Assembly (NCBI GenBank): GCA_030429145.1
Contig: JAUIDC010000001.1
Coordinates: 540,001-572,000 of the forward strand
Direction of reading: 5' to 3'
From: Candidatus Saccharimonadota bacterium
GTDB taxonomy: Bacteria; Patescibacteriota; Gracilibacteria; Absconditabacterales; Absconditicoccaceae
DNA length: 32,000 nucleotides
In this document: piece after piece, positions 1 through 32,000 of the stretch
Layout: the number at the start of each line of letters is the position of its first letter
How positions within the stretch are numbered: position 1 is the stretch's first letter
Notes under the pieces: model-generated
Database searches by the model: none
Told to the model about the DNA's origin: nothing
The model's input: the letters and a program-made list of their open reading frames with translations, nothing else
Translations under genes and position numbers: made by a program

Positions 1-252
1 GTGATAACCTCATTTGATACCAATCTCATGCAACAGTTCACTGATCAGACGGCGGGAAGACTCTATCGTAATCCAGGTGGTGATGAGATGGCGTCGTTGG
101 CAGAGCTTCTTTCCCGTGGGGAGCAAGAACTCGTTGAGTATGCAGTAGAGAGGAAAAGATTGAATACATATTTGCTACCATGGCTTCTTGTATCGCTCTC
201 GATCTTACTACTGCTACAATTGAGAAGGCTAGTTTACATAAAGAGAAAATAA
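1..252 (+). CDS. 3' end of a gene that starts upstream of the window; hypothetical protein with a C-terminal hydrophobic anchor
   Basis: The frame is open from base 1 to TAA at 250..252. The tail LLPWLLVSLSILLLLQLRR looks like a TM anchor. I recognise no motif. Confidence 0.3.
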   Translation: MITSFDTNLMQQFTDQTAGRLYRNPGGDEMASLAELLSRGEQELVEYAVERKRLNTYLLPWLLVSLSILLLLQLRRLVYIKRK

Positions 253-292
253 CAACCTTGTTATTGGCGCTAGATTTGCTATAGTTTGCCCT

Positions 293-1279
293 ATGAAAGA
301 TAACATATTTTTGTTTACAGGAGATAGCCCATTTTTGCTCTGGGAGGAGCTAAAAAAATGGAAGAGATCGTTTGCTGAGAAATATGGAGAGCAGTATATT
401 TTTTCATTTTCTTCGGACAATTTTGACATACCAACGATCATAGATAATACGTTTTCATGAGGCCTCTTTGTAAACAAAAAGCTCGTTGTGATCTTCTGAG
501 TGCCATGAGATAAAGTGAGTGACAATAAAATCTCTGCCGCGAAGTTGGAACAGTTTGAAAAAGGATTTATCCAGCGTATTGATTATCTATCTCCTGATAC
601 TATCGTGGTGTTTGTTTCGTATGATCCTGATAAGAGATTGAAGCTCTACAAGGCTTTGAGTGAGATCGCGCAAGTGAAAGAATTTAAGACGCCGAATGCG
701 CCAGGTCTGAAGAAATTCCTTGGAGGATTGCTGGGTGAGCTCGTCTCAGGTGAGGATGTGGATTACATCGTCAGTATTGTCGGTAACGACATGTTCCGTT
801 TGGCGCATGAGGCTGACAAGTTGAAAACATATGCGAAGTTTCACAACATGGAGAAAGTGAACAGAGAGGTGATAGATAACGTCGTCTATACCGAGACAGA
901 TGCCAATAACTTCGCAGTACTCGATACCATGTTAACCGATAAACAAAAGACCCTTGAGACTATTGATATTATCTCTGAAAATATGGTAGACCGAAATGAG
1001 TTTGTCGGAATGCTGTATTGGTGACTGAAGCATATGTTACAGACGCTCGATCTCTATGAACAGGGAGAGAAGGACAGCAAACAAATAGCTTCGAAGATAG
1101 GCGTGCACTTCTTTCCGATCATCAAAGATCTGAAGATTATCGACAAGATCAAAGCAAAGAAAACAAAACTCATTGAGATGTTTGATGAACTCATGAGCCT
1201 CGACATGTCTATCAAAAAATGACAATTTCCAGCAGAAGGTTTCTATACTGAGGTAAAGAAAATTATAGCAAAATTGTAA
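293..1279 (+). CDS. holA: DNA polymerase III subunit delta (HolA)
   Basis: ATG at 293, TAA at 1277..1279. Five in-frame TGAs (458, 497, 506, 1022, 1220) join track ORFs 515..1024 and 1034..1222 to an unlisted N-terminus. The 328-aa translation (MKDNIFLFTGDSPFLLWEELKKW..FSGGLFVNKKLVVIFGVPGDK..MLYWGLKHMLQT..MSIKKGQFP) has HolA-like length and layout. Confidence 0.8.
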
Positions 1280-1282
1280 ATA

Positions 1283-1567
1283 TTACTTCGTCCTTATGTC
1301 TTTCATACTATAACGAAAATCGCTAGCAGCAAGTTCCTTATTGATTGCATCAAGGATCTGCTGTTTTTCTTTATAGAGAGCAATGTTTGTCTCTCTTGGG
1401 AGATCTTTGAGAAATAGAATATTGTGTCTGATATATCATTCGGTATTGCTGAAATTGACTCCTGGAAATTTTTTTCTGAGTACACGGAAGCAGGAGCTCA
1501 CGATATTGATCGAGCTTCCCATTGATTTCGATAGCGAGCTTTTCTTCAGTAGTTTTTTGATTTCCAT
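1283..1567 (-). CDS. hypothetical small protein (94 aa), absent from the ORF track
   Basis: The third minus frame reads MEIKKLLKKSLSKSMGSSINIVSSCFRVLRKKFPGVNFSNTEGYIRHNILFLKDLPRETNIALYKEKQQILDAINKELAASDFRYSMKDIRTK, ending at TAA (1283..1285). One in-frame TGA (1436..1438) cuts it below the track's length cutoff. It reads more like protein than the two listed overlapping ORFs (1303..1485, 1371..1613). Confidence 0.35.
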
Positions 1568-1652
1568 CTGCTGTTTTTCGGTAATGAATATTCTTTGACA
1601 AAGCTATATGCAATGAGTATACACAGAAGATGTTTATTTGCCATTTGAAATA

Positions 1653-2120
1653 ATGTCGATAGTAAAAAAAATAGCCACATGGTCTATGATGCTAGGAGTT
1701 CTCTCTTTGCCTCTCTTTACCTTTGCCGTGCAAAATAGCTTTGAGATTATCCCTGAGTCAGAGAAGGATGTCTCTCAAGATGTGGATGAGGTTGGAAAGT
1801 CATGAGGGAGTGTTCGAGATAAGCTCAATCAAAAAGCTCAAGAGTATGAAGACAAGTGAGATCTCGGTGCGCAGTTTGCAAGCGGAGCGTTCACTTGGAA
1901 TACACTTTTGAATTACGTTGTCTATCTTGTAAGATTTTTGTCGCAGATAGCGCTCGTTATTGGTGCGGGTATGATCGTTGTGTCGGGGTACAAGTACGCA
2001 TCGGCATCGTTCACCGGTAAACAGCCAAACTCCAGTGATGTGAAAAATGCTATCATTGGGGTGCTCATAGTTGTTTTCTCTTATGCTATCGTCAGGATAT
2101 TGACCGAAGCATTTCTCTAA
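1653..2120 (+). CDS. small secreted membrane protein, TrbC/VirB2-like putative T4SS pilin
   Basis: ATG at 1653; two in-frame TGAs (KSGGS, DKGDL) join it to track ORF 1908..2120; TAA stop. It has a signal peptide (MSIVKKIATWSMMLGVLSLPLFTFA) and then two hydrophobic helices separated by a short polar loop (..IALVIGAGMIVVSGYKYASASFTGKQPNSSDVKNAIIGVLIVVFSYAIV..). That is the architecture of VirB2/TrbC-type pilins reported in CPR genomes. Confidence 0.5.
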
Positions 2121-2205: not shown

Positions 2206-2766
2206 ATGGTAAAGATCGACACGAAAGACGTGAAAAAGAATACGATTCTTGATATTGATGGAAACCTTATGAAGGTTCTTGATACAAGCTTTATGCAGAT
2301 GCAGCAGAGACAAGGATCATATACCTATAAAGTACAGAATATCGTAACGGGTAATGTACAAAATGTAACATACAAGTCAGGTACCGTGCTTGAAGTGGCA
2401 GACGTCACAAGAAAGAACGCAACATTTCTGTATCAGGCAGGAGACACCTATACGTTCATGGAAGCTGACAATGGAGAGATGCATGAGCTCCCTATCACTA
2501 TAGTCGGTGAGGATGTTGCTCCATATCTTAAGGAAAATCTTGATCTCTACCTTGAGATTCATGGAGATGATAACGTACTCAATGTGCTTCTTCCAGCAAC
2601 AGTTACCTACAAGATTGTTTCTACTGTTCCTGGTGTGAAAGGAGATAGAGCACAGGCAGGTAAAAAGCCAGCGACATTGGAGACTGGTCTTGAGATACAG
2701 GTTCCACTTCATAAAAATGAGGGTGATGAGATCACTATCAACACGCAAACAGGAGAGGTTGCATAA
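2206..2766 (+). CDS. efp: elongation factor P
   Basis: Intact 186-aa ORF with no TGA. Typical EF-P sequence (MVKIDTKDVKKNTILDIDGNLMKVL..VPGVKGDRAQAGKKPATLETGLEIQVPLH..). Confidence 0.95.
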   Translation: MVKIDTKDVKKNTILDIDGNLMKVLDTSFMQMQQRQGSYTYKVQNIVTGNVQNVTYKSGTVLEVADVTRKNATFLYQAGDTYTFMEADNGEMHELPITIVGEDVAPYLKENLDLYLEIHGDDNVLNVLLPATVTYKIVSTVPGVKGDRAQAGKKPATLETGLEIQVPLHKNEGDEITINTQTGEVA

Positions 2767-2887: not shown

Positions 2888-4438
2888 ATGGTAAGAAGAA
2901 CGAAAAGAAAACCAAAGATCATACAAAATATTACCATCGAAAAGATGGGTCACGGGGGCGTGGGTATCGCACGCCAGAGTGACGGACGCAAGATTATTGT
3001 TTCGTGAGGTGCTTTGCCTGGTATGGTTGCGGACGTGATGGTCTTCAAACAGAAGAAGGATTTTGTAGAAGCAAAACTTTATCACGTGCACTCGTATGGC
3101 GAAGAGTTTACATTGGATAGAGATGCTGTCCGCTGTCCGCATTATGTGTTTCATGCAGAAGATGGGCTGGAGCACGACGGTATGGGAGAAAATAAAGTTG
3201 GGTGTGGAGGATGTAAGCGACAGATTTTGCGTTATGAGAAACAGTTGCTCCTGAAACATGCCATAGTGAAAGATAGTTTTAGACATATAAGAGACCTTAT
3301 TGAGAAGGTATGAATGAAGCCGTTTGTGCCAGCGCCAGAGCAGTTTGGTTATAGAAATAAGATAGAGTATAGTTTTGGTAAGTATATTACGAATGAGTCA
3401 CCAGAACAGCATCACTGGCAGATGGGTTTTCATAAACAGTGACAGTTTTCAAAAGTGATAGATGTGGATCAGTGTTATCTTGTCTCAGATGAGTCGAAGA
3501 AACTGTATCGTACACTAAAGGAGGTGCTACGCACGTCTGGTCTGCCAGTCTATGATCAAAAGACACATCAGTGATTTCTCCGTCATCTGGTCGTTCGTGA
3601 AGGAAGAAATACTGGGCATTTTTTGGTCAATCTCAGTGTGTCAGAAAAGCAGTTAGAGGAGCTTTGACTCGAGAAGAAGCGAGAGGAGTTTAAGGAGCAG
3701 CTACTGAAAGACAAATACCTTCAAGAGACAGTCACCTCATTCGTCGTGACAGTAAACAATGGATTGGCTGATATCGTGAAAGGAGAAGATGCTACGACCT
3801 ATGTGCTTCGAGGCGAGGGAACGATGTACGAGAAACTACTATTTCCCAAAGAGTCTGATAAAGAACACCTCACAGAGGTGAGCTTCCGTGTTTCGCCGTT
3901 TTCGTTTTTCCAAACAAATACGTTTGGAGCACAAAGGCTCTTCCAGACTGCTATGGATGCTGTCGGGCAGATAGAAGGAGACATACTCGATCTTTACTGT
4001 GGAACAGGAAGTATTGGTCTTAGCTTTCTCAAGGCTGGAAAAGGAGAAAGGGTAATGGGTATTGAGATCGTTCCGGATGCTATCATTGACGCAGTATGGA
4101 ATGCAAAAGTAAATGGGCTTGAAGAGAAGAGTTATTTTGTCGCCGGTAAGGCTGAAGAGCTGATAGAAAAAGATCAGTATATCGCAGAGAACCTTGATAA
4201 GGTAGAACTTGTAGTGGTTGACCCTCCACGTGATGGACTCCATAAGAAGGTTGTTGAGTTTTTGATTAATTTGAAGAGAGAACGTGATTTTAAGCTCTTG
4301 TATATCTCTTGTAATCCAGTCACGATGGCTCGTGATATACAACTACTTGAGGGGGATCACTATAAGCTCCGTAGCCTACAACCAGTTGATATGTTTCCAC
4401 ATACACATCACGTAGAGATGGTGGGAGTACTATCTTAG
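2888..4438 (+). CDS. RumA/TrmA-family RNA (uracil-5-)-methyltransferase with TRAM domain and Fe-S cysteines
   Basis: ATG at 2888, TAG at 4436..4438. Five in-frame TGAs (3005, 3311, 3440, 3572, 3665) join track ORFs 3014..3313 and 3746..4438. Motifs: N-terminal TRAM-like segment, Cys cluster (CPHY..GCGGC), GYRNK, SFFQTN, the SAM motif DLYCGTGSIG, DPPRDG and the catalytic region ISCNP. Confidence 0.85.
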
Positions 4439-4595: not shown

Positions 4596-5168
4596 ATGAA
4601 GGCAACAAAAAGAGCATTCACGCTTATCGAAATGCTGATAGTTATTGTTATTATCGGTATTCTCGCGGCAGCTTTAGTTCCTAGACTTGTATCAGTACAA
4701 GGTAGAGCAAGAGACACAAAACGTAAGGCAGACCTTTCACAGATTGGTTCAGCACTTGCTATTTATAAGACTGACAATTCAACTTTCCCTGCGGCATCTG
4801 GTAACGTATCTCTCGTGCTTGCAAACCAATACTTGAGTGGATACCTTACAGCGACACCAACAGATCCTGTATCTACAGCAGGAATCCCAGAGATGGGTGC
4901 GTCTGCATCAAATACAGGTTACGGATACCTTTCTGTAACAAGAAATGGTGTAACATCTAACGGTTCGGCACTTGCTGCTCAAACTGAATCAGATGGTACA
5001 AGTTCAAATGCTATCATCTATACTGGTACGATGAACCACAGTACGACAGCTGAGACTTTGGACTCATTCCTTGGAACATGTAACGGAAGAGCAACAAAGG
5101 GTTCTACATTCAACCCTACTACGTGTGCTGCTCCTGCTACAGGTCTCAGATACTACTATGTACAATAA
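4596..5168 (+). CDS. type IV pilin / pseudopilin-like protein (prepilin-type N-terminal cleavage/methylation domain)
   Basis: MKATKRA|FTLIEMLIVIVIIGILAAALVP is a class III signal with the invariant Glu5. The C-terminal half is rich in Ser/Thr/Gly. The track's start at 4488 adds 36 implausible residues, so I prefer ATG 4596. No TGA. Confidence 0.8.
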   Translation: MKATKRAFTLIEMLIVIVIIGILAAALVPRLVSVQGRARDTKRKADLSQIGSALAIYKTDNSTFPAASGNVSLVLANQYLSGYLTATPTDPVSTAGIPEMGASASNTGYGYLSVTRNGVTSNGSALAAQTESDGTSSNAIIYTGTMNHSTTAETLDSFLGTCNGRATKGSTFNPTTCAAPATGLRYYYVQ

Positions 5169-5215: not shown

Positions 5216-5220
5216 TATTG

Positions 5221-5279: not shown

Positions 5280-5828
5280 TTATTTGTCGATAAGTGCTTC
5301 AATGGCTGCTGCCCCATGATCTTCAGATGCGTTTACAATGATGGACAACTCATTGCCGACGTTTCCTTTGAAGAATGTCACTGCTGCTTGGTTGAGAGAG
5401 TATGCTTTCCCTTCATCTGTGAGTGCGATAAACTTGCCATCTTCTGTCTTTGAAAGCTTTGCTTTTACATACTTTCTTGGTGCTTGGGCGATGAGTTTAT
5501 AGACGAGTTTCCCGTCTTCCATGATACGAAGCTTCATCATGTCACCAGGAACAAGCTTTGTCTTACTGGCATAGTTCATAGGTACAGGATAGATCTTTCC
5601 GTCGTTCCCTTGCATGAAATTACCATCAAACGTACCTTCAACTACCTTGATGTTCTCGTCTTCTTCTGTTGTGTCGCTCGCTGAACTCTTTGGTGCCGCA
5701 ACATCACTAATAGAAACGCCTTGGTCGGCATAGAGCTTTTGCAAAAGATGTCTTGCCTTTACCGCATCGCTTTCCATCTTACTGAGAAGGTGCAAAAGCG
5801 TTGTCAGTGCTTCATTTTGTTTGTCCAT
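5280..5828 (-). CDS. hypothetical protein (182 aa)
   Basis: Intact ORF with a TAA stop and no TGA. It has an N-terminal helical segment, an acidic linker (TTEEDENIK) and a beta-rich C-terminal half (VEGTFDGNFMQGNDGKIYPVPMNYASKTKLVPGDMMKL..). I recognise no motif. Confidence 0.6.
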   Translation of the reverse strand: MDKQNEALTTLLHLLSKMESDAVKARHLLQKLYADQGVSISDVAAPKSSASDTTEEDENIKVVEGTFDGNFMQGNDGKIYPVPMNYASKTKLVPGDMMKLRIMEDGKLVYKLIAQAPRKYVKAKLSKTEDGKFIALTDEGKAYSLNQAAVTFFKGNVGNELSIIVNASEDHGAAAIEALIDK

Positions 5829-5978: not shown

Positions 5979-6485
5979 ATGGTAATCTATTATATTCTTG
6001 CATTTCTTCTTGGTGGATGAGTTGGCTATCTGCTATTTTACCTCAGATATGAGCACAGAGGCCTCATTGATGAACTCAGAGATAATTTTCAGGATACCAA
6101 AAGACAGCTCGAGAACGTACAACATGACTCGCAGGAGCACCTTCAGCAAAATGTTATCCTCAAGGAGAAGGTAACAGAGTTGATGACAAAAAATGATGAT
6201 CTTTCGAGAATTGTCTCAGAGCTCAGTAGATACTACTATCATATCAAACTAGGTGCAGAGAAGGCATCAGAGCTAGAGAAGATCTTACATATCTTTGATA
6301 AAGATATTGAAGAAAAGATGAAATACACTCTTGGTGAAAGGATCCTTGAAAGTCTTCATGAGTGAAAGAAAAGTGTGAGAGGAGACGATGATGACGATAT
6401 GGATGAGGACGACAGACCTCGTCGCCCAGAAAAAAATCGCATCATCGCAGCAGATGGAAAGAGTGGCTGAGGAAAGAAGTGGTAA
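5979..6485 (+). CDS. membrane-anchored coiled-coil protein with acidic tail (hypothetical)
   Basis: ATG at 5979, TAA at 6483..6485. Three in-frame TGAs (6018, 6363, 6468) extend track ORF 6180..6365 in both directions. It has an N-terminal TM (MVIYYILAFLLGGGVGYLLFY), a heptad-like middle section and a DDDDDMDEDD tail. Confidence 0.55.
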
Positions 6486-6518: not shown

Positions 6519-7130
6519 ATGAGTTATAGAAAGAGTAAGGTTGCGGTTGTGTGAAGCAAAGAGGGATACAATGCTGCTGCTACGCTCTACAAGAAGTTTC
6601 ATAAAGAGCTTGCAAGTTATGACAAGGGACTATTTCAAAGATTTTTGCCGAGAAATATGGAAGGCAAGAGCGTCCTTGATATAGGAGCATGAGATGCAAG
6701 GCTCTATCGTTATTTTCAGGATAAACAGGTTCGCTATGTGGCCATGGATGTGGCGGAGAAGTTATTGAAGCGTGCTCCAGGTCGCGTAGAAAAGGTGGTC
6801 GCGGATATTGAGTCGGCACGGCCGTTTGAAGATAATGAGTTTGATGCTGCGTTATGTTTTTTTGTGTTGTTGCATGTAAGTGATTTACAGCATTTCTTTG
6901 ATGAGGCATATAGAGTCTTGAAGCAAGGAGGCAAGCTTGTAGTGCTACAGAACTATCAGAGACGCAGCTATGAGTACAATATCGATGGCAAGCAATTTAA
7001 GATTGAAGATCGACATCACTCGCATGAAGAGATCTTATCCTCGGCTGAGCATGCATTTTTTACAGAGGAGCATATTGAACTAACAGAAAAGGACATTCCT
7101 ATTGGGATGCTTTACTGCTTCACAAAGTAG
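6519..7130 (+). CDS. class I SAM-dependent methyltransferase
   Basis: ATG at 6519, TAG stop. Two in-frame TGAs, one of them inside motif I (VLDIGA-G-DARL, TGA at 6690..6692). The post-I acidic residue and the LKQGGKLVV motif are present. This extends track ORF 6738..7130. Confidence 0.8.
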
Positions 7131-7211: not shown

Positions 7212-7772
7212 ATGAAATCATACGATAAAGATTTTTTACAGAGATTGCAGCAGAGAGATGAGGCTGCGTTCAGTACACTGTACAATGATACAGTCGACAT
7301 GTTTTTCCGTTATCTGAAAGCGACGTATTTTCTTAGTGATAGTGAGATAGATGATCTGTTGTCGTCGTTCTATGTAAAGGTGTGGAATAACTTGAAGCGC
7401 CTCGATACAAATACATGATTGAGTTCTTGGATGTGGACTATCTGTAAGAATCTTGCAAAGGATTATTTCAAAGCACATAGCTCAATTCACTTTAGTCAGA
7501 TGGACTCTAATCGCTATGAAGATGGTGATGCATTTGAAGATGGATTGTTATCAGAAGAAAATATTACTCAGATGTTTCACACCAATCGAGAGTATTCAGA
7601 AATTTTGCAGGCGATGGAGCAACTCACGTGAGATTATAGAGAGGTCTTGTATTTGAAATTTGTAGAAGAGTATTCGTATGAAGAAATTGCAGCTACGTTG
7701 AAAACGAGTGAGCAAAATATAAGGCAGAAAGTGTCGAGATGATTGAAAAAATTGAAAAGCCTGCTTCCCTAG
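7212..7772 (+). CDS. RNA polymerase sigma-70 family factor (ECF-like, regions 2 and 4)
   Basis: Track ORFs 7212..7418 and 7419..7631 plus the tail to TAG at 7770..7772 are in one frame, joined by TGAs at 7416, 7629 and 7740. Region 2-like segment: FYVKVWNNLKRLDTNTGLSSWMWTICKNLAKDYF. Region 4 HTH: REVLYLKFVEEYSYEEIAATLKTSEQNIRQKVSRGLKKLK. Confidence 0.8.
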
Positions 7773-7970: not shown

Positions 7971-8246
7971 ATGACTAAGACACAATTGATCGCACACCTC
8001 GCATCTAAGCTTGGTATCTCTAAGAGACTCGCTAACGACGCTCTTAATGTTCTTATCGACGGTATCATCGCTTCTGTAAAGAAGGGACAGGAAGTAAGAA
8101 TCCAGGGTTTCGGTACTTTCAAGTCTTCTAAGAGAGCTGCTAGAACTGGTGTGAATCCAAGAAATCCATCTGAAAAGATCAAGATCCCTGCAATGAAAGT
8201 TGTTTCTTTCAAGGCTGGTGCTGATTTCAAAAAAGCTGTTAGATAA
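7971..8246 (+). CDS. hup: HU family DNA-binding protein
   Basis: 91-aa ORF: MTKTQLIAHLASKLGISKRLANDALNVLIDGIIASVKKGQEVRIQGFGTFKSSKRAARTGVNPRNPSEKIKIPAMKVVSFKAGADFKKAV. The HU/IHF signature is canonical. No TGA. Confidence 0.95.
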   Translation: MTKTQLIAHLASKLGISKRLANDALNVLIDGIIASVKKGQEVRIQGFGTFKSSKRAARTGVNPRNPSEKIKIPAMKVVSFKAGADFKKAVR

Positions 8247-8413: not shown

Positions 8414-9184
8414 TTACTGTCGTGCAAAAAACGCTTTTATTTCTTCTAGCATGATACTATACGAAGTCGGTGATTGCTCTTCTCCCGGTACATCGCTTAA
8501 TCCTTTCAGATAGACAAGAGAACTTTTGCGATTGTTGTCGCTGTAGGTCATACAATTCCAAGCATTTAACATGTTGCCGTGTTTGTAGTCAGAGTATTCC
8601 GAGATAAAGCATAAAAGGTTGCCAGGCAATGTATGAATAACATCGGCTGGTTGTTGAGATTCTCTCATCAACTTTTCCCTATCTATGCGCATATGTTTGT
8701 GTGCTTTGAGGAAGTTATTTTGTCCTTCGCTTGTGTCCCAAGGAATATGTGCAGGAGCGTTGTAGAGTATAATACGTATATCTTTGCTTACATAATGTAC
8801 TCTATTTCTGCCCTTCAGTACTTCAAGTGTTCCAGCTAAGAGGGCGGGTCCTGCACACATTGCAAATACTTTGTCTATTGGCTGTTGATACTTTTCATAG
8901 ATGCTTTCTATGCTGTCTGCTATGTCTTTGGCTCCTTGCCAGAATGAAAACTCTCCCTCATTGTTTTCGATGTCTTGTCCACTTAAAATTGGAATAAATA
9001 CATCGTAGTGCTCTGAGAGTTTTTCACACAGGGTGAAGTATCTTTCTTGGCGAGGCCCTTCCTTGTCCTTTGCATAAATTCCTGCTCCATTTGGAATGAG
9101 GAGAAGAGGCGATGCCGTTTGTAATTGACTTTTAATGAGCAGTAACGTTGCTGTTTTCGATTTTGCAAATGTTTCTATTGTCAT
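8414..9184 (-). CDS. hypothetical protein, possibly alpha/beta-hydrolase fold with a Cys nucleophile elbow
   Basis: I prefer ATG 9184 (MTIETFAKSK..) over the track's TTG at 9229. Features: a beta-strand-like PLLLIPNGAG, an elbow-like VFAMCAGPALL (small-x-Cys-x-small) and later His/Asp candidates. No TGA among about 15 Gly codons. It lies co-directionally downstream of the radical SAM gene. Confidence 0.5.
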   Translation of the reverse strand: MTIETFAKSKTATLLLIKSQLQTASPLLLIPNGAGIYAKDKEGPRQERYFTLCEKLSEHYDVFIPILSGQDIENNEGEFSFWQGAKDIADSIESIYEKYQQPIDKVFAMCAGPALLAGTLEVLKGRNRVHYVSKDIRIILYNAPAHIPWDTSEGQNNFLKAHKHMRIDREKLMRESQQPADVIHTLPGNLLCFISEYSDYKHGNMLNAWNCMTYSDNNRKSSLVYLKGLSDVPGEEQSPTSYSIMLEEIKAFFARQ

Positions 9185-10640: not shown

Positions 10641-10826
10641 GTCGAAATGGGCAAAAACAAAAAACATACTATAAACAATGTTTGATATTCGTCAACAATT
10701 CTAATCTCTAATCTGCAGTAGATTATTTTCTACTATGATAGAGAATGAGGCGAGAGGAATATGGATTGGCTTGCAACCGTGCGTGAAAATGATACAACAG
10801 GAGAGATTTATTATTGTGTGTGAACG

Positions 10827-13417: not shown

Positions 13418-13501
13418 TGCCTGGAGAGGGACTCGAACCCTCACTCCATTGCTGAAACCAGATTTTGAGTCTAGCGTGTCTACCAGTTCCACCACCCAGG
13501 C
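13418..13501 (-). tRNA. tRNA-Leu (anticodon CAA), type II with long variable arm, no encoded CCA
   Basis: The reverse complement reads GCCTGGGTGGTGGAACTGGTAGACACGCTAGACTCAAAATCTGGTTTCAGCAATGGAGTGAGGGTTCGAGTCCCTCTCCAGGCA. It has a 7-bp acceptor stem, a GTG/CAC D-stem, the anticodon stem CTAGA/TCTGG with loop CT-CAA-AA, and the T-arm GAGGG-TTCGAGT-CCCTC. Confidence 0.9.
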
Positions 13502-22165: not shown

Positions 22166-24218
22166 AATAGGATAGATCGGCTGAGATAATGTGTTCCAAT
22201 GGGCCATTTATACACAAAGTATATATTTTGTCAATGTTTATTTTCTGTGCAATACATTGGAGATAAAAGTCATAGCCCCCTATGATAATATTGTATGGAG
22301 AGGTTTTGATAGAGAATATGTTTTTTCATTTTCCGCCTGTAATATTTTCTCCATGTACCTTGTGTTTCTGTGGTTTATGGTTGTGGAGTCGAACAAGTAG
22401 TTCTTGTGATGTTTGTTTGTTGTTTGAGAAAATATAGATGTTTTTTTCATCGTAGGTGAGTTTGTCCTTGCCTGGTCGTGCGACGACAGGAGGAGTGGCA
22501 AATGGACTAGTATGTTTATTGAGAGGCTGTCGGTCTTTTTTTGTGTGAGACAGAAAAATAGTCTGGTAGGTGTCAAACAGTTGCTCAAATTCACTGTAAT
22601 CGAGATAAGAGTGCAGTTTTTTGACAGTAAAATGTACCTCGTTTCACTGTAGTCTCGTTGAGATAACGCATGGAGCGTTAAGAAGGTCCGTAAAGATAGT
22701 TCGCTTTTCTTTAACGATCTCTCGATCTTCGTCTGAAACATTGTTTTCTAGCGAATGTATCAGCTCTGTTATCTGAGGAAGGAGCAAGTTTATCTTGTAG
22801 AAGTAGGTGTTGTCTGCTATGTTGTCTACCTCGACAGCGCTATTGCTGACATCTTTGAGGAGATTGGCGACTTCGGTTTGCCATATACCCAAGAAAATAA
22901 CGAGCTTCGTATGCAATGTTTCTCGCGGTGACATCTTTGAGGAGTCTAACAGCTGGTCTCTGTAGAGCAGTGAATCAGTGATTTGTAAAAGTAGGTGTAA
23001 GTCAAATGGCTTTTGAGACCGTTTCATGTGAGTATCATATCGCCAATCTTGATCGAAGAAGAAGATGGTTGTGTACGGCATGATCTCATGGTTGCGCATC
23101 TTTTCATAGAGCATTTCGTGTGTGAGCAGTTCGACAGGCTTTGCTCACTGTTTCTTCTCTCTCTCTTTCAGAGCATGGTAGATCTTTCGATCAGAGCCGC
23201 TATTGAGATCGATATTGCTATGTTCGGACATAGCATGAAAGAAGTATTTGAGCGCAAAGTAGAGTTCATGTTGATCAAAAGATGTTTTACGAAAGAACAA
23301 TCATAGTAATTTTGCGTCAAAAAGATGCTGATTGCCAGTTTCTATGTGCGTAAGGCCGAGCTCGTGAAGTACATTTTTAGCGATCTGTATTTTATGTCTT
23401 TGGGAGAATGCATAGATGACATTTTCTTTCGGTAGAATCTTGCATGCTTCTTTGAGAGAGCGATCACCAGTGAAATGTCTAGCTTTATCAGTGAAAGAGT
23501 CAGTCGTTAAGGTGTCCGGTGTGATAAGTTTTTTGTCGCTCACATATGTCTTGTTGAGTAGTGGAATCGCCGTTGTCAGACCACTTGGTAGTGACGGTAT
23601 TTCTATAATTTCTGTAAGTGCACACTTGCCACGTTGGAGATAGCTCATTATTTGTTCGTACTTTGATGCAGTTTGTTCTATGCGTTTGATACACTCTAAA
23701 AACACTCTTTGAGTCGCATAGGCATCATAAAGTGCGTCGTGGTGTGTTGTGCCGTTAATCTTTTCTGCGCTATCGTTTTTTGCAAGAAGGAGCGACTTAT
23801 CAAGTACCTCAAGCGCATAACTTGGAGAAAATGGCATAAGCGACTGCGCTAATGGGAAGGTGTCTACTTGTGTCAAGTACTCAAAAGAGCCATATTGAGC
23901 TAAGATGCTCAGGTCAAACTGGATATTGTGTCCTATAACGACCGTATTTTTATCAAAAAACCTTTTTACCTCGTCGGATATTTCATGAAATGATGGGGCG
24001 TCTCCTAGTTGCTCTATCTCTAATCCCGTGATAACACGAACGATATCTTTGAGTTCTTGTAGCTCCTTTTTCGGCTTTATATAGCTGGAAAAAGTATCGA
24101 GAGTTTTTCCTGTATGATCAAAAGAGACAATTCCCACTTGAATTGCTTCGTCGTTCTCAGGGTCCAATCCTGTTGTTTCAAAGTCGATACACACATAACG
24201 CAGGTCTTTACGAAGCAT
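22143..24218 (-). CDS. DinG-like protein: N-terminal DEDDh 3'-5' exonuclease (DnaQ/epsilon-like) fused to a divergent helicase-like region
   Basis: Track ORFs 23301..24236, 22644..23114 and the region down to TAG at 22143..22145 form one frame, joined through four TGAs. Exonuclease motifs: CIDFETTGL (ExoI), VIGHNIQFDLSIL (ExoII), HHDALYDAYAT (ExoIII, DEDDh). The C-terminal region has DinG-like blocks (ELLTHEMLYEKM; IFFFDQDW at the DEAH position; IIIGGYDFY..INGPL), but I see no Walker A motif. I prefer ATG 24218 over TTG 24236. Confidence 0.75.
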
Positions 24219-24330: not shown

Positions 24331-25611
24331 ATGACAGCAGTGCTGTGATTTTTTCTTCTATTTGCCGCACTTTACCATCTTTTGGTAACAGTTTTTGTTT
24401 ATGGACTTGGACGAGTGCAGCCTGAGATGCTCGTAATTTTCAGGGATATTTTTCGACTTGTGATTTTCTTTGTATTGGCGATTGTTCACAGAAAAATATT
24501 TGTGGACTATGTAAAGCGTACATGGAAGCTTTGGTGAGTACTTATTTTGCTAAGTTTCTTTGCGCTTGCTGTATCGTACATACAACAAAAAACAATGACT
24601 GATATGCTCGTATGAGCAAAGTATGGCATGCAGTTTTTCTTTGTGTTTTTGATGGCTACATTTCTTGGGCAGATCTTTTCTCAAAAAGGCGCGCAGAAGT
24701 TTCAATCCTTTCTCCATATCCTTTTCTATATCTTCGTTTGAATAATTATTGTCGGAATTCTTTGGCAGGTGGGTAAGATGTTCTATCCTGAGTTTTTCTA
24801 TTCGCTTGGATATGCGACATTTGGTGACTGGGTGTTTGGGCAGAACCCTCCTTTGTATTATCTGACCTGACCAGGTGGATATGCGAGACTGAGTGGTATT
24901 TTCTCATGACCAAACAACTATGGATATCTTTTTGTTGGACTGTTTGGCTTCTGGCGACGATATCTTCGCACCTATGTAAAACAGAGATGAGTGAAGGTGT
25001 TGCTTTGGGCCTTGTTTGCCTTTAGTGTTCTTTGGACGATGTCGAGAGGAGCTGTGCTAGGTATCTTTTTACAGATCATTGCACTGTCGTTTGTGCTTTT
25101 CCACGCAAAGCGCTCGTATATCATAGGACTTCTTATCTCAGCGATCTTGATAGCTGGGGCGCTGAGTCTTATTAAACGAGGGTCTACAATGGCTCATGTG
25201 ACTGCTAAATTTAGTAGCCTTGCCTATGTGCGAGCAAATCCGTGGGGTTATGGACTTGGTTCGTCGGGGCCGAGTATCCATACTGGTCACGGTAGTATTC
25301 TGCCTGAAAATTTCTTTGTACAAATACTGTTAGATATAGGTATTCCGTGAATGATTCTGTGGCTGTTGTTCCGATATATTGTACTCAAAAATATCCGAAC
25401 TCGTATCAGAAAGTTGGCTCGCCATGATAAATATGCGGTGTTGCTTATTTGTTTGTCTTTTGGTTTCTTAGGTCTTCTTCTAGAAGGAATGTTCCTTCAT
25501 GTCTTTGAAGACAGCATGGTCAACTATTGGTTCTTTATTCTGTGGGGTGTGACATACGGATATCTGTTAGTTCCACGTTCTAGTAGTTCTACTGAAGAAC
25601 AACAAAGTTAG
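24331..25611 (+). CDS. O-antigen ligase / Wzy_C-domain family membrane protein
   Basis: ATG at 24331. Eight in-frame TGAs (24346, 24535, 24613, 24739, 24868, 24907, 24988, 25348) join an unlisted 220-codon N-terminus to track ORFs 24991..25350 and 25351..25611. It is polytopic, with RLSGIFSGPNNYGYLFV, TMSRGAVLGIFLQ and the periplasmic-loop region GSSGPSIHTGHGSILPENFFVQILLDIGIPG typical of Wzy_C proteins. Confidence 0.8.
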
Positions 25612-26524
25612 TCACGACATACGACACACCGATGATGAGTATACCGATGATAATATAGAGGAAATTTTTCTTGATCCTGTCAATTTGTTTTTCGTCTGTT
25701 GGATTTCTGAGAAGGTTGATTGCTTCGACGATGATAAGTACTACGACGATGAAGCCAACAAGTCCCATAACCCAGTTGAGTACGACATAGAGCCACGCAA
25801 ATGATTTGTCTGCGAGTACTCCCGCACCGATGTCTGCGAGTGACGTTGCATTGGGATTGACGACATCTTCTTGTCTTCCGAATATCGTTTCGACAATAGA
25901 TTTTGAAAAGAGGATGGTCAGGATACCGACGGCATTCCAGATGATAATTGTTCTGGCGTGTTGCTTAATCTTGTCGTCAGGGTTCATCAAAAATCTGAAC
26001 ATATGGAGGAGGAGTATGAGAAATAGCACACCAACTACGACAAACATAATCATCTTTAAAAATGGGAAGATGATCAAGCTGTATAACTTTCGCGCGGCGA
26101 CATTTCCTTGTAGCTGAGTGAAGTCGAGGACTCCGCCTGAGCCAACGAGTCTATTAGCTATGAATGAGGCAGAAAGTATGATGATGATTCCTACAACACC
26201 TCGTAACACATATCTAAATCCTTTCTTTTGCTCTTCTTCTTTTTCTGAAGACATAATCTCATAAAATCACAATATCGACATCAAGACACCAACGATCACA
26301 ATGACCGGTACAATAATTTTCTGTAGTACGGCAATCACAAGATCTCTCGCTCATTCTGCTCATCCCTGCGCACCGGCGAAGCCGGCACCTTCCAGGTGTT
26401 GCTGGATAGGCTGTGTTGCATCTTGTATGGCATTGTCAAAACGTGCTGCACCAAGAAATCAGATATTGAGCGCAGCAAATCCGACAAAGAATATCGATAC
26501 AAGAAGTTTTTTCAGAGCGTGCAT
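25589..26524 (-). CDS. membrane protein of the VirB4 module: signal peptide plus VirB2/TrbC-like N-terminal segment, continuous with a 4-5 TM body
   Basis: ATG at 26524 (MHALKKLLVSIFFVGFAALNIGFLGAA..). Four in-frame TGAs. The frame runs without TAA or TAG into track ORF 25589..26254 through TGA 26267..26269. Under the standard code it would split into an 85-aa secreted TM protein and a 221-aa membrane protein. Track ORF 26301..26537(+) is its antisense shadow. Confidence 0.55.
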
Positions 26525-26550: not shown

Positions 26551-27576
26551 CTATGATGATTGATGTGTATTTTGTGTGCTTTGACTTTCTATGTTGACGA
26601 CAGGCTTTGTTCTTTTTCCTCACAGTAGTGAGTAAAGAAGAGGCACCTTTGGTAGCTTACCTGAACTTATAGTCATAATGATCTTGCCAAGCAACAATAT
26701 TTGTGGCAGTAGTGCAAGATTTGCACCTACTGTTGGGTCACTATTGAGCCGTGTGATATAACCTCGGTAGCCGATTGCTCAGATGACGACTATATAAGAG
26801 ATGATGGTACGTCGGTGTGTGAGGGGTTCTAGCTGACTGTAGGTGTGTTTTCGTGTGTTGATCTCTTGAGATAGTGTAGAGTTTTTTTGAAAAAGTTTTT
26901 TGAGCGGATGAATAAGTAATGAGAGTGGATATGCGATGAACTCTTCTATGTTTGTATGAAATCGTTTGTTGATGCTTTGTTTCATAGAAAGAGACAAGAT
27001 GTCCATCCCAGCAAGTAACATGATACATCTGATCGCGATAATGATGAATCCTAAGAATATAACAGTAGTCGTTGGCCAGATGCTGATCAAGATAATATAG
27101 AGAGACCAAAGCAGTACGCTTTCTTTGATCCATCGGTAGTTATTCTTGTCGAGAGTCTCGTTGTACCAAAGATAGAAATTGTAGAGTGGAATGAAATAGA
27201 TGAGGATAGTGGGATTCGTATGTGCCACTGTTTTCTCTCATGGCTGTATTTCTTGATGCACTATGGTTTTGTTATTGATGACAGCAAAAACGCCTATGAT
27301 GATCATGGCGATGACGATACTCATAAGTCCATAGTTGATCCAGTAGAGAACTGGTATAGTGAAAAAGAGTGTGTAGGTTCCTCGAACGATGAGAGCTGTA
27401 GCTAGCATAGTTAGCACCCAATATCCATAGCGGATATAGCTTTTCACATAGCTTTCTTCGTCTGCTGTGATGTCGATATTTTTTTCTTTCAGCATAAAAG
27501 AGACAGCAGGTGCCAGTAGCATGATAGCTGCAAGTGACGCAAGGTGTTTATCTGTAAATGTGTTGTTTGATGACAT
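26551..27576 (-). CDS. polytopic membrane protein of the VirB4 module (about 8 TM; VirB6/TrbL-like role possible)
   Basis: ATG at 27576 directly abuts the virB4 stop (TAG at 27577..27579). Track ORFs 27238..27576 and 26779..27228 and the tail to TAG at 26551..26553 form one frame, joined through TGAs at 27238, 26779 and 26620. The translation is very hydrophobic. I recognise no motif. Confidence 0.55.
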
Positions 27577-29724
27577 CTATTTTACATCAGTAGTGATAAA
27601 CTCTTTTTCGAATGGTGAGGCAAGTACTTTGATAGCAACGTGTTGATTGCCGGCAAAGAGTACTCATTCACCAATGCCCGCCGCAACGAGTCTTTGTTTC
27701 TCGGCATCAGATAGTCCTACAACGCTATTGAGTTCTTTGATAGATGCTGTTGATTGTTTAAGGAGGAGCTGTATAGCCGAGTTGGTAATGATTGGTTTTC
27801 CGTATTTTGATTTTGCAAAGTCCTCGATATCCTGTGATATAGTGGTGATACCGAGTCCATACTTTCTTGCTCTTTTGACCATACCATAGAGGAAGTTTGC
27901 AGAGATGTCGTTTTGCATCATAATCCATGCTTCATCCACTACGAGAAGTCTCTTTTCTTTCTTTGATCTTACTTTGGTCCAGATATAGTTGAGGATGTTG
28001 TACATCGCTGGTGTTTTAAGCGCCTCGTCGAGATCTCTAATAGAGAAGACAGTAAGTCCTGTGTTGAAGTCAACATTGGTTTGGTTGTTGAAAAGTTTCC
28101 CGAAAGTACCAGTAACATACTTGCTGAGTCTCACGGCAATGCTGTTTCCACCATCCATACCTTCAAGAACATGAAGGAGATCTTCCATAATAGGAGGCTG
28201 TTTTCCGCTGTAGTCGTCTTGTTCAAAAGTAATCTCTTTGAGTGCATATGTTGACTGTAGTGCACGGTCGAGTAGTGCTTCTTCTTCAGGAGAAAGACCT
28301 CCAATAAGTACTGAAATCAGACCAATGAGACTCATAATTTGTGTTCTCAAAAGGTCGCCTTTGCCATATTCGACATCTTCCACCTTAGGAGGTAGGTCAA
28401 ATGGATTGACGTACTGCTGACTGTTGATAGCGATGTTGAGGTATGTTCCACCTACTTTTTCACAAAGAGCTTTATATTCATTTTCTGGGTCGATCACGAT
28501 AGTTGGGATGCCTAAGAGGAGGTATCTCATGATTTCAAGTTTCACGCTGAATGATTTACCGGCACCGGATGTCGCTAGTACGACGCTGTTCCCATTTGGT
28601 AGTTTCTTACTGAAACGGTCAAAGATAATGAGTGAACCAGTCTGCAGGTTTGCACCATACAAGATACCAGTTTGTTCAATCAGATCGTTTGAGATAAATG
28701 GAAAGCTTCCTGCAAGAGAGGTGGTTACCATAGATCTTGTGATGCCTAGTTCATCAAGTGCTAGAGGCATAGTAGCATTGAGCCCCTCGTCCATTCTTTG
28801 GATCGCAGGTTTTACTCTGATACCGTAGCCAGCAATTTTTTGTTCAAGCTTTTTACTTTCTTCTGAGAGCTTCTCTTCTGTTTTGTCGTAGAGAGAAATA
28901 TAACATGATGTCTCAAAATACCTTTCTTCACGAGAAGCGAGTTTCTGTCTAATCTCTTCTACGTCACGGTATTGGAGTTCAACTTCTGTGTCGATAGTGA
29001 TGCCTTTTGAGGCAGACTCATTCATCTCGGCCCTCAGCTGTGTTGAACGTCTCTTAAGCATGCTCTGAATGTCTGCATCTTCTTCTGGATAGATAAACCA
29101 AGACATATCCCATTTATCATAGAAGTTCATCATATCTCTTGTTCGGAGGAAGTCGATATATGAAGGGTAGTTGTGTGCATAGTAGGTTTTACCAAATAGT
29201 CCAGAAAGGTTGATACCTTGTGGTTTTACCTCTCGGTAACTTGGTGCCATGTGTGACTTATAGTCAGAAAGCGATGACACGTACTCTTTTTCTATCTTTT
29301 GAATGTGTTTTCTTAGTTCTGAAGTCATCATCTTGTCGCTATATTGATCCTCAGGCATCTCAATAAGCTTTTTGATTTGTTCGGTAAGGGTCTCGTCTTT
29401 GTGAGCTGCATCAATTGCAGCTTGCTCAGCAGCTTTTTTTGCATCTTGTTGTTTCAGCTTCTTTGGATTACCAAAGAGCCAAGAGAAAAATCTACTGAAA
29501 AATCCTGGTTTCTTCTCTTTTTTCTCCTTTTCGTTTGGCTTGTTCGATGATCCGTCATTTGGGGTAGCTGTGCTAGTTGCCACTCCCGTCTGTCATGTAG
29601 AGGCCTCTTGTGTAGCTAGTTCTTCCTGAACTTGCTGTGCCTCCAATGTCTTTTCGTCGAAATACGGAAATCCTCCCTGAGGGATGAGCTGTGTGTAGTT
29701 TGTGTCATAAACAACATTCAACAT
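27577..29724 (-). CDS. virB4: VirB4/TrbE/CagE-family type IV secretion ATPase
   Basis: Track ORF 27664..29583 extends at both ends through TGAs (27664..27666, 29593..29595), running from ATG 29724 to TAG at 27577..27579 (715 aa). Walker A: VVLATSGAGKSFSVK. Walker B: RLLVVDEAWIMM. Also IDPENEY, GITTISQDIEDF and the C-terminus GIGEGVLFAGNQHVAIKVLASPFEKEFITTD. The N-terminal roughly 110 aa are Lys/Glu-rich with a hydrophobic patch, GFFSRFFSWLFG. Confidence 0.85.
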
Positions 29725-29827
29725 GCGCTTTTCGGTTTTTGTTTTATAAATCTTCTACTATTATAGGGAAATAGTAAAAAACCAGTAATTTTAGCATAGG
29801 ACTGGACGATTACGGCGCAAAAAGAGA

Positions 29828-29858
29828 TTGACACTTTTGTGTAAAATATTTTTAGTAT
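29828..29858 (+). promoter_or_regulatory. weak candidate promoter upstream of fusA
   Basis: A perfect -35 TTGACA (29828..29833), but the best -10 is TAGTAT (29853..29858) after a long 19-nt spacer. It would give a leader of about 225 nt. Confidence 0.25.
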
Positions 29859-30087
29859 GTGTCTGTCGCGTTTAATGTGTTGATTGTCTTAAAAACTTTT
29901 TCGTATTCCCATTGCAATTTAGCGGTAAATCCGTATATATTTGCGTATTGCTTTCGACCATTCCCGATGGTGGGAAAAACGGCAGAAAGATAAGGATTAT
30001 TATGGCACGATGATAGAAGGTTTGTGGCCGTTTGTCATCATGTCATTTTAGTTTTATTTACCATATTTAATTACTTGTTTAACTCCT

Positions 30088-32000
30088 ATGGCAGAATTTA
30101 AACCCTTAAATGTAGTCAGAAATGTAGGTATTATCGCGCATATTGATGCGGGAAAAACTACAACAACTGAGCGTATTCTTTACTATACTGGTAAGAACCA
30201 TAAAATAGGTGAGGTTCACGAAGGTGAAGCTACTATGGACTGGATGGAACAAGAGCAGGAAAGAGGTATTACTATTACTTCTGCTGCGACTACTTGTTTC
30301 TGGAGAGACCACCAGGTAAATATTATCGATACCCCAGGTCACGTGGACTTTACTATTGAGGTAGAGCGTTCTCTTCGTGTTCTCGACGGTGCGGTATGTG
30401 TACTTTCTTCTTCTGACGCTGTACAGCCTCAGACAGAAACAGTATGGAGACAGGCTGATAAATATCACGTGCCTCGTATGTGTTTCGTAAATAAGATCGA
30501 CAAGATCGGTGCAGACTTCAAGATGTGTATTGACGACATCAAAGAGAGACTTTCAGGTAAGGCGGTAGCATTGCAGCTTCCATACGGTGAGTCTTCAGAG
30601 TTTAAAGGTATCGTTAGCCTTTTCTCTATGAGATATTATACGTTTGAAGGTGCAAATGGTGAGCAACAAGTAGAACATGATATCCCTGAAGATTTCAGAG
30701 CAGAGTGTGAAGAGTATAGAGAAAAACTTCTCGATGCTGCTTCTGCATTTGATGATGAACTTGCTGAGAAATATCTTGCAGGTGAGGAGATTTCTATTGA
30801 GCTTTTGAAGAAGGCTATCAGAAAGGGTGTGGTAACAAATGAACTGTATCCTGTACTTGTTGGTTCTGCTCTTAGAAATGCTGGTGTTCAGCTTATGCTT
30901 GATGCTATGGTTGATTTCCTTCCTTCGCCACTTGATATTGGTAATGTACACGGTACAGATATCGATGATCCAGAGAAAAAGATGGAGAGAGAGCCTTCAA
31001 ATAGTGCTCCTGCATCGGCTTTGGCATTTAAGATCATGACGGACCCATTTGTAGGTACATTGACGTTTGTTCGTGTTTACTCAGGTGTAGTGAAATCAGG
31101 TGATTCGTTACTCAATCCAAGAACTGGAAATAGAGAGCGTATCGGACGTTTGCTCTTGATGCATGCAAATAAGAGAGAAGAAGTTTCTGAGATTCCAGCA
31201 GGACACATCTGTGCCTTCCTCGGTCTTAAAGACGTGAAGACGGGTGACACGCTTTGTGATGTGAAAGACACTATCATGCTTGAGCGTATGGAGTTCCCTG
31301 ATCCAGTGATCAATGTGGCAGTAGAGCCTGCTTCAAAGAAAGATCAGGAGAAGATGGGGCTTGGACTTTCAAAGCTTGCATATGAAGATCCTTCATTCCG
31401 TTTCTATACTGATGAGGAGTCTGGACAGACTATCATCGCAGGTATGGGTGAGCTTCACTTGGAAATTATTATTGACCGTTTGAAGAGAGAACATAAGGTA
31501 GAGGCTGTGACTGGTAAGCCACAGGTAGCCTATAGAGAAGCTATCTCTCAAAATGCTGACGGTGAAGGTAAATTCGTTCGTCAGTCTGGTGGACGTGGTC
31601 AGTATGGACATGTACTCATCCATCTTGAAAAGCTTGAAGAAGAAGGAAAGATCTATGAGTTCCGTGATGATGTAACTGGTGGTATCATTCCTAAGGAGTT
31701 TATCCCAGCTATCGATAAGGGTGCTCAGGAGGTTATCAAGCAGGGTCCTATTGCAGGATATCCAGTGATTGGTGTAAGAGTTGCTCCATTTGATGGTTCA
31801 TACCATGATGTAGACTCGTCAGAAGTTGCGTTTAAGGTTGCTACATATAGAGCATTCAAGGATGCCTTCATGAAAGCTGGTCCAACGCTTCTTGAGCCAG
31901 TGATGAGCGTTGAAGTAACAACTCCTGAAGAGTATATGGGTGATGTGATGGGTGACCTTTCTTCAAGAAGAGGACTTATCGGTGCTCAGGATCAGAGAGG
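30088..32000 (+). CDS. fusA: elongation factor G (5' partial; continues beyond the window)
   Basis: ATG at 30088. The frame stays open to the window end, which is probably why the ORF track omits it. Translation: [86 protein letters not shown]... There is no TGA in 637 codons, and Gly is almost always GGT. Track ORFs 30106..31623(-) are antisense shadows. Confidence 0.97.

Follow-up and report, generated by a model that had tools for sequence, protein, structure and literature searches.

Probable reading of UGA as glycine and of CGA and CGG as tryptophan in a 32-kb chromosomal region of an uncultured Patescibacteria lineage

The 32,000-nucleotide stretch considered here (contig JAUIDC010000001.1, positions 540,001 to 572,000; hereafter the window, meaning the whole of this stretch) raises the question of which genetic code its genes are written in. 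The codon-level evidence makes it very probable that the code is of the Absconditabacteria type, in which UGA would specify glycine, CGA and CGG would both specify tryptophan, and only UAA and UAG would terminate translation. A preliminary description of the same DNA recognised the UGA half of this code and missed the CGR half. The window belongs to the ordinary chromosome of a bacterium with a small genome and is neither phage nor plasmid; its guanine-plus-cytosine (GC) content is 40.3%. With TGA taken as sense and TAA and TAG as the sole stops, 31 protein genes were placed on it, giving a coding density of 90.6%, besides a single tRNA gene, tRNA-Leu(CAA).

All of the longer genes contain UGA as a sense codon. 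The gene frames of the 31 placed genes contain 92 TGA codons, close to the 85-90 counted in the preliminary description, and no TAA or TAG; in the other two frames of the first 29 genes TGA occurs 229 and 381 times, TAA 113 and 193 times, and TAG 179 and 107 times. Of the 30 complete genes, 20 stop at TAA and 10 at TAG, and none needs TGA. The preliminary description had likewise assigned TAA or TAG to every gene end but one, and this exception disappears. The hydrolase in question, placed at 17337..18362 with a TGA stop, carried a coordinate error; the gene for this alpha/beta-hydrolase-like protein lies at 17634-18362 on the minus strand and its stop is TAA (17634-17636), immediately preceded by TGA (17637-17639). 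Such a TGA-TAA gene end probably misled the preliminary description into calling TGA a stop. The end reads ...HNI-TGA-TAA (17634-17639, minus strand), and translation of the final glycine is not readable from sequence.

Coding density points the same way. When open reading frames (ORFs) of at least 100 amino acids (aa) are tiled greedily and without overlap, table 11 yields 40 ORFs (median 150 aa) and a coverage of 70.6%; once TGA counts as sense, 30 ORFs (median 259 aa) take up 92.8% of the window, and the control recodings of TAG or TAA as sense reach only 78.6% and 79.4%. As had been proposed, holA, RumA-type methyltransferase, sigma factor, murE, tsaD, family 2 glycosyltransferase (GT2), virB4 and an exonuclease gene previously called DinG-like all regain their full length once TGA is read as sense. 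Pfam domains cross TGA codons as single matches, examples being the TsaD profile (positions 7-263), Mur_ligase_M and Mur_ligase_C.

The meaning of the codon can be read from related loci. Two were found by scanning a single genome per species, L002 (OZ246420.1, 161716-182801, on a complete 1.1-Mb chromosome) and L003, a more distant contig with 31% GC; L005-L007 were added as further relatives by way of their EF-G homologues (85-90% EF-G identity), and L008 and L009 likewise. L002 is syntenic with the window from 2.8 to 27.6 kb at about 70% amino acid identity, and its orthologues align through to the final residue of the window ORFs delimited by TAA or TAG. Window proteins were compared by BLASTP with the ORFs of the relatives, TGA being masked as X, and the codons were then read for each column, a comparison independent of any choice of translation table. 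Opposite TGA in the window, L002 has GGN 26 times, TGA 14 times, TGG once and other codons 18 times; in the 82 pairings of L002 TGA, the window has GGN 44 times, TGA 14 times and TGG never. Against the background share of GGN, the binomial probability of this pairing is 3e-21 for window TGA and 6e-38 for L002 TGA. Over five relatives, the 144 pairings of window TGA include 60 with GGN, 36 with TGA and 3 with TGG.

Tabulation of the residues opposite TGA in solved homologues agrees with this GGN enrichment. The five motif sites cited in the preliminary description are all in-frame TGA codons: 12054-12056 (LLAGK-TGA-HEQ), 6690-6692 (LDIGA-TGA-DA), 17118-17120 (PYPG-TGA-A), 458-460 (TFS-TGA-GLF) and 24907-24909 (IFS-TGA-PNN). 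The first belongs to murE (10827..12137, plus strand; Pfam Mur_ligase_M and Mur_ligase_C), whose AGK-G-HE motif has glycine in 4 of 4 solved homologues in the PDB; a second murE TGA, at 11256 (DFDL-G-V), faces G, G, G and A (3 of 4 glycine), and a third, at 11607, lies in a variable column (L, L, L, G). Glycine is equally constant at the YPG-G site of tsaD (16530..17618, plus strand; Pfam TsaD; TGA at 17103, 17118 and 17268), where TGA 17118 faces G in 4 of 4 solved homologues, and at motif I of the class I S-adenosylmethionine (SAM) methyltransferase (6519..7130, plus strand; Pfam Methyltransf_11; TGA at 6552 and 6690), where all 5 PDB alignments put G opposite TGA 6690. In the RumA/TrmA-type RNA uracil-5 methyltransferase (2888..4438, plus strand; five TGA; stop TAG; Pfam tRNA_U5-meth_tr and TRAM), TGA 3572 in Q-G-FLR is matched by G in each of two distinct solved homologues, and TGA 3440 in one of them. 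A few TGA codons sit on variable columns of solved homologues. HolA had no match in the PDB, and its FS-G-GLF region is also outside the L002 coverage. In the GT2 glycosyltransferase (18362..19957, minus strand; six TGA, eight CGA/CGG; Pfam Glyco_trans_2_3) the C-terminal TGA codons pair with GGN in L002. Relatives supply further invariant glycines: TGA encodes the P-loop position of EF-G in L009 (AHIDA-G-KT) and the first position of the catalytic GGQ motif of release factor 1 (RF1) in L008 (GCA_964430205.1; 12141-13217, minus strand). In this RF1, a glycine of the GGQ motif is thus written with the codon that release factor 2 (RF2) normally reads as stop. Because TGA exchanges with GGN and occupies invariant glycines, UGA is best read as glycine here, and on that reading table 4, pseudogenes and selenocysteine are all excluded.

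Under table 4, the Mycoplasma-type code, UGA would mean tryptophan; TGA is clearly a sense codon, and P0001, a public copy of the window's RumA-type protein (window 2945-4438, on a 936-kb NCBI contig), has W at every TGA, the result of table 4 translation. The table 4 reading is nonetheless extremely improbable, because TGA pairs with GGN and not with TGG (3 of 144 window pairings and 0 of 82 in the other direction), because it falls on the invariant glycines of MurE, TsaD and methyltransferase motif I, and because W occurs in EF-G homologues only at universally glycine columns, a signature of mistranslation. The preliminary description rightly held that TGG is still used for tryptophan; its use of this fact as an argument against table 4 fails, since table 4 organisms keep TGG too.

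That the standard code applies and the TGA codons are real stops, arising from pseudogenes, assembly errors, selenocysteine or programmed read-through, has negligible likelihood. Table 11 gene calls for the window's DNA do exist publicly, as fragments: on Logan contig ERR3428547_6724 (111 kb, run ERR3428547), which ends within fusA at about window position 30260, murE is called in three pieces, the methyltransferases in fragments and VirB4 as a piece of 639 aa. This contig is, however, an independent assembly of identical DNA. The 31 frames lack TAA and TAG despite their many TGA, the essential genes murE, tsaD and holA would all be broken, and five relatives share the pattern, with TGA and GGN exchanging. 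As to selenocysteine, Rfam matched only a tRNA in the window and no SECIS family, and the TGA sites face glycine, not cysteine or selenocysteine.

The glycine reading of UGA, with UAA and UAG as stops, is the part of table 25 that the preliminary description had right; table 25 also keeps CGA and CGG as arginine, and there it fails, the 67 such codons in the window behaving as tryptophan. A first hint came from window TGG codons facing CGG or CGA in the codon tables of the relatives. The window contains 56 CGA, 11 CGG and 75 TGG codons (59.9, 11.8 and 79.1 per 10,000 codons), so that CGA and CGG would make up 47% of its tryptophan codons. Opposite window CGA, L002 has TGG 16 times, CGA 12 times, CGG 10 times and never CGY or AGR; opposite window CGG it has TGG 6 times and CGG, CGA, AGG and TAC once each. 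Taken together, CGA and CGG face TGG 22 times, CGA/CGG 24 times, CGY/AGR once and other codons 6 times, whereas window CGY and AGR face CGY/AGR 133 times, other codons 70 times, and neither TGG nor CGA/CGG at all (Fisher p = 1e-17). The alignments were biased against a tryptophan reading of CGR, since BLAST scored R against W at -3. Over the five relatives, the 151 pairings of window CGA/CGG include 48 with TGG, 64 with CGA/CGG and 2 with CGY/AGR; the 567 pairings of window CGY/AGR include none with TGG and one with CGA/CGG; and window TGG pairs 83 times with TGG and 45 times with CGA/CGG. In a screen of all 64 codons only TGA, CGA and CGG deviate from their standard meaning, ATG, TGG and AGA being marked as well solely from having few or no synonymous partners.

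Individual sites tell the same story. In L002, TGG stands opposite CGA 7587 of the sigma factor gene, opposite both murE CGA codons (11412 and 12096), and, as in L003, opposite both CGG 16926 and CGA 17124 of tsaD. An anchor in standard-code proteins is provided by the DUF58 protein (12181..12828, plus strand; six TGA, including the tandem pair at 12778-12783; CGG at 12331 and 12427; Pfam DUF58), in which CGG 12331 encodes a conserved family tryptophan. With the exact table 11 N-terminal fragment as query, 1.84 billion cluster representatives were searched exhaustively; among the best 150 matches, 149 family representatives cover this column (query position 51), 120 of them with W, 27 with R and 2 with A. 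The closest 40 have R 20 and W 19, and the other 110 listed have W 101, R 7 and A 2. Further anchors come from EF-G, whose three tryptophans (MDW, CFW and TVW) are TGG in the window and whose columns hold W in solved EF-G apart from a single F (Thermus, MDW). CGG occupies all three of these universal tryptophan positions in L008, and CGA occupies the one in TETV-W-RQ in L009. Among 121 sequences (the window and 120 clade homologues), the sole alternative at the three tryptophan columns is R, in 3, 15 and 6 sequences, and the sole alternative at four universally glycine columns is W, in 21-32 sequences; these appear to be the signatures of CGR mistranslated as arginine and of TGA mistranslated as tryptophan. 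Since CGA and CGG exchange with UGG and with each other, not with CGU, CGC, AGA or AGG, and given the standard-code anchors, they are most simply taken as tryptophan codons here, while UGG would remain tryptophan and CGY and AGR arginine.

Plain table 25, with CGA and CGG still arginine, is accordingly very unlikely. Its UGA = Gly part holds, NCBI and current tools assign it to the clade, and many genomes of the sister order BD1-5 were inferred to have CGA = Arg. It is opposed by the 48 pairings of window CGA/CGG with TGG against 2 with other arginine codons, by the converse pattern of CGY/AGR, by the DUF58 tryptophan written as CGG, and by solved structures, in which the CGA/CGG sites of TsaD, MurE, the SAM methyltransferase and the RumA-type protein face hydrophobic or aromatic residues and R only once. 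Opposite methyltransferase CGG 6819 the PDB alignments have L, L, M or K and never R, and the CGA sites fall on variable columns (L, V, Y, M, with R once); these columns were taken as evidence against a conserved arginine, not as proof of tryptophan.

A most unlikely variant is ambiguous or transitional decoding, in which CGA, CGG or both would be partly tryptophan and partly arginine, or UGA partly a stop, according to context. CGG received a '?' and one 'Arg' call in some Absconditabacterales, and U34 wobble ambiguity has been discussed (Shulgina and Eddy, PMC8629427). The absence of recoded codons from 9 of the 31 genes, fusA, efp, hupA and ssb among them, would fit costly or error-prone decoding, and one gene ends in TGA-TAA. 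The alignments nevertheless retain no residual arginine meaning (2 of 151 pairings), and CGG occupies the conserved DUF58 tryptophan and, in L008, three universal EF-G tryptophans; decoding fidelity itself is not measurable from sequence data.

Several observations weigh against the Absconditabacteria-type reading itself. Neither the window nor L001, its left flank on the Logan contig, contains a gene for tRNA(UCA), tRNA(UCG), tRNA(CCG) or a release factor, and the recoding tRNAs were not found in L001-L003 or L005-L009, loci that hold only tRNA-Leu(CAA), Met(CAU) and Ser(GCU). The window's GC content of 0.40 is just above the 0.26-0.38 reported for clades with reassigned CGA/CGG, GC being a correlate and not a defining property of this reassignment and 32 kb a small sample. 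CGA takes its meaning in the window from its exchanges with TGG of the relatives, not from a universally conserved tryptophan column, and the relatives are not independent of one another, each window codon being counted once per relative.

How the three codons might be decoded has been proposed for Absconditabacteria by Shulgina and Eddy (2021, eLife 10:e71402, PMC8629427), with low GC and rare codon usage thought to have helped the reassignment. Following the clade literature and not the window, the loss of RF2 would have left UGA to a tRNA-Gly whose anticodon is UCA, and RF1 alone would handle UAA and UAG. L008 carries an RF1 gene (NCBIfam prfA, 450 bits, above the cut-off; prfB score below the cut-off; PAT motif). 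CGA and CGG would be read by tRNA(UCG) and tRNA(CCG) bearing tryptophan identity elements (G73, no A20), and CGU and CGC by tRNA-Arg(GCG), the inosine tRNA-Arg(ACG) being missing in these bacteria. Because CGY would be read by tRNA-Arg(GCG) and no inosine tRNA-Arg(ACG) would be present, the CGR half of the codon box would be free to change its meaning alone.

In kind, such a code is already known: UGA = Gly dates from 2013, and the assignment of CGA/CGG to Trp in Absconditabacteria from 2021. The former was reportedly described as the code of candidate division SR1 and Gracilibacteria, table 25, by Campbell and by Rinke in 2013. To our knowledge, no numbered NCBI table combines UGA = Gly with CGA = Trp and CGG = Trp. 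The window resembles table 25 in UGA = Gly and in its UAA/UAG stops and differs from it in CGA/CGG, so that not all 61 sense codons would keep their standard meaning. Table 4 (Mycoplasma/Spiroplasma and several insect endosymbionts) shares a sense UGA, an expected loss of RF2 and small genomes, and differs in reading UGA as tryptophan where the window would read glycine. Capture of an arginine CGN codon is also found in Anaerococcus and the RFN20 Bacilli (Onthovivens), where CGG = Trp, and in Peptacetobacter, where CGG = Gln; in these, unlike the window, only CGG changed, CGA stays arginine and UGA stays a stop. These Firmicutes keep CGA = Arg by means of inosine tRNA-Arg(ACG) (Shulgina and Eddy 2021, PMC8629427; PMC13092985).

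The closest counterpart is the Absconditabacteria code itself, which Shulgina and Eddy (2021, PMC8629427) inferred with Codetta, UGA standing for Gly and both CGA and CGG for Trp, and which PMC13092985 also treats. In their published table (fig4-data1), each of the 10 Absconditabacterales genomes has UGA = Gly and CGA = Trp, and the entries for CGG in that table's Absconditabacterales genomes are Trp, '?' or, once, Arg; in the sister order BD1-5 CGA mostly stays arginine, and Peribacteria and Peregrinibacteria are outgroups with standard meanings (PMC8629427). Shared with the window are the same three reassignments, AGA as the main arginine codon, CGU and CGC as arginine, and UAA and UAG as the only stops. 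The 10 published genomes have GC contents of 0.29-0.38, versus 0.40 for the window, and a maximum of 37 CGA per 10,000 codons versus about 60, the published figure coming from Pfam-aligned columns and not being strictly comparable. With CGA and CGG supplying 47% of its tryptophan codons, the window is matched by only one comparably advanced published assembly, GCA_002791215.1.

The lineage of the host is consistent with this code. Among named homologues the nearest come from SR1, Absconditabacterales, Absconditicoccaceae and Gracilibacteria. Their identity is 46-52% in RumA and 69-71% in EF-G, where the four labels are equally near and closer relatives reach 78-92%. In the RumA-type search the best 120 matches are all from the recoded clade, and hence offer no standard-code references. 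The host would thus belong to the uncultured, UGA-recoded clade of Patescibacteria (Candidate Phyla Radiation, CPR) that comprises SR1/Absconditabacteria and Gracilibacteria BD1-5 and is GTDB class JAEDAM01, much as the preliminary description had placed it. Its apparent code behaviour fits the order Absconditabacterales, CGA = Trp matching that order rather than BD1-5. The database label of the L002 chromosome, OZ246420.1, is 'uncultured Candidatus Peribacteria bacterium', yet in-frame TGA pairs there with GGN, and CGA/CGG with TGG. Since the standard code is reported for Peribacteria, while L002 is syntenic with the window and recoded, this label is probably wrong.

Usage of the recoded codons varies with GC among these loci, in figures drawn from aligned genes and small samples. 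The TGA share of glycine codons is 60% in L003 (31% GC), 24% in L006 (33%), 20% in L002 (39%), 14% in the window (40%), 8% in L005 (42%) and 6% in L007 (45%). The CGA/CGG share of tryptophan codons tends to rise, from 21-41% in the three lower-GC loci to 55-63% in L005 and L007. L007 favours CGG and the window CGA. It is conceivable, if somewhat doubtful, that the window, L002, L005, L007 and L008 (GC 0.39-0.45) represent a higher-GC branch with UGA = Gly whose code is uncharacterised, in which the captured CGA and CGG are no longer rare and supply about half or more of the tryptophan codons, a late, GC-driven stage of re-expansion after reassignment. If so, sense-codon reassignment would not be confined to low-GC genomes. 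The window in any case adds a data point on the spread of a captured sense codon, with GC 0.40 and nearly half of its tryptophan codons in CGA or CGG.

The importance of the finding is mainly practical, as tables 11, 4 and 25 would all mistranslate this DNA: table 11 fragments the genes, table 4 would put tryptophan at 92 glycine positions, and table 25, which a 2026 code-prediction tool also assigned to the clade, would put arginine at 67 tryptophan positions. Public EF-G homologues (P0121-P0240) carry two systematic types of error, W for glycine and R for tryptophan. Unless a custom table is applied, such errors pass into structure predictions, family profiles and motif searches on proteins of the clade.

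Nine genes contain neither TGA nor CGA/CGG. They are efp (EF-P; 2206..2766, plus strand; Pfam EFP_N, EFP and Elong-fact-P_C), whose product has an exact match on Logan contig ERR3428547_6724; a type IV pilin-like gene (4596..5168, plus; N_methyl, T2SSG); a conserved hypothetical gene of 183 aa (5280..5828, minus; 84% identity to L002 over 182 aa); hupA, for HU (7971..8246, plus; a Bac_DNA_binding gene call on the Logan contig, 98% identity to L002); ssb (13670..14086, plus; SSB); lepB, for signal peptidase I (14142..14771, plus; Peptidase_S26); the gene of a bacterial PH-domain membrane protein (15592..16167, plus; bPH_2); that of a small conserved protein, Hsp20-like by eye only (16192..16527, plus; 79% identity to L002 and 62% to L003); and fusA, for EF-G (30088..32000, plus; matched by Pfam), which is truncated by the window end. 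The 183-aa and Hsp20-like genes were absent from the gene list of the preliminary description. Together the nine hold 146 GGN and 9 TGG, whereas all 92 TGA and 67 CGA/CGG fall in the remaining 22 genes; fusA alone, with 53 glycine codons, would lack TGA with a probability of about 4e-4. High expression is typical of several of the nine, and the recoded codons look avoided in such genes, the grouping, and the Fisher test on it, being post hoc and defined by the lack of TGA.

Taking TGA as sense inflates spurious ORFs alongside real ones. Three ORFs were dropped as genes for being less conserved than the ORFs kept: 5187-5843 (plus strand), 7965-8354 (minus) and 16171-16713 (minus), which oppose or overlap, respectively, the 183-aa gene, hupA, and the Hsp20-like gene together with the start of tsaD.

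The other genes are described in order along the window. At the left end, holA (DNA polymerase III delta; 293..1279, plus strand; Pfam DNA_pol3_delta and DNA_pol3_delta_C) has five TGA (458, 497, 506, 1022 and 1220), one CGA (992) and a TAA stop, and is followed by a hypothetical membrane protein gene of uncertain start codon (1584..2120, plus; four TGA, one CGA; stop TAA). The RumA-type gene already discussed has three CGA, one of them at 3218 in CGGCK-CGA-Q. A hypothetical coiled-coil or membrane protein (5979..6485, plus; three TGA; 86% identity to L002) precedes the SAM methyltransferase, which carries a CGA at 7011 besides its CGG, and an ECF-type sigma-70 factor (7212..7772, plus; three TGA, one CGA; Pfam Sigma70_r2 and Sigma70_r4_2). 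Beyond the DUF58 gene lie a 182-aa membrane protein gene (12832..13380, plus; two TGA, one CGA, one CGG) and the tRNA-Leu(CAA) (13418..13501, minus; ARAGORN and Rfam), the sole tRNA of the window and not a recoding tRNA. An ABC-2 type permease (14802..15575, plus; one TGA, one CGG; Pfam ABC2_membrane_2) stands between lepB and the PH-domain gene. The hydrolase-like gene has five TGA, five CGA/CGG and 42% identity to L002, with no Pfam match to its product.

To the right of the GT2 gene are a hypothetical secreted protein of 398 aa (19975..21171, minus; seven TGA, two CGA; 62% identity to L002 end to end), a putative zinc metallopeptidase (21236..22165, minus; five TGA, one within HEL-TGA-H; three CGA; Pfam Peptidase_Mx1 below the curated cut-off), the formerly DinG-like gene, which encodes an RNase T-type exonuclease with a long C-terminal region (22143..24218, minus; four TGA, nine CGA/CGG; Pfam RNase_T; 60% identity to L002), and an O-antigen ligase/Wzy-like membrane protein (24331..25611, plus; eight TGA, eight CGA; a weak Pfam Wzy_C match; 58% identity to L002).

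A conserved cluster at 25589-29724 on the minus strand, which may serve secretion, DNA uptake or attachment to a host, comprises genes for a type IV secretion pilin-like protein (25589..26524; four TGA, two CGA; Pfam T4SS_pilin), a membrane protein of 341 aa (26551..27576; three TGA, seven CGA/CGG) and a VirB4/TraG-type ATPase (27577..29724; two TGA, two CGA; Pfam P-loop_TraG, AAA_10 and DUF87). It is also present in L002 and L005-L007, always adjoined by the fusA region. In L005, L006 and L007 gatC lies directly upstream of fusA (about 9650-9970); in the window, the 363 base pairs upstream of fusA (29725-30087) form a gap without a conserved ORF.

Two minus-strand genes at 8414-10667 are not in the otherwise syntenic L002, where murE directly follows hupA. 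One encodes a hypothetical protein of 256 aa (8414..9184; no TGA, one CGA) and the other a radical SAM protein (9276..10667; three CGA; Pfam Radical_SAM). The latter has the highest number of TGA among the window genes, 11 in 463 codons; these include a tandem pair at 10362-10367, which, like that in the DUF58 gene, had been correctly noted before. If the radical SAM gene was acquired, it has long since adapted to the code of its host.

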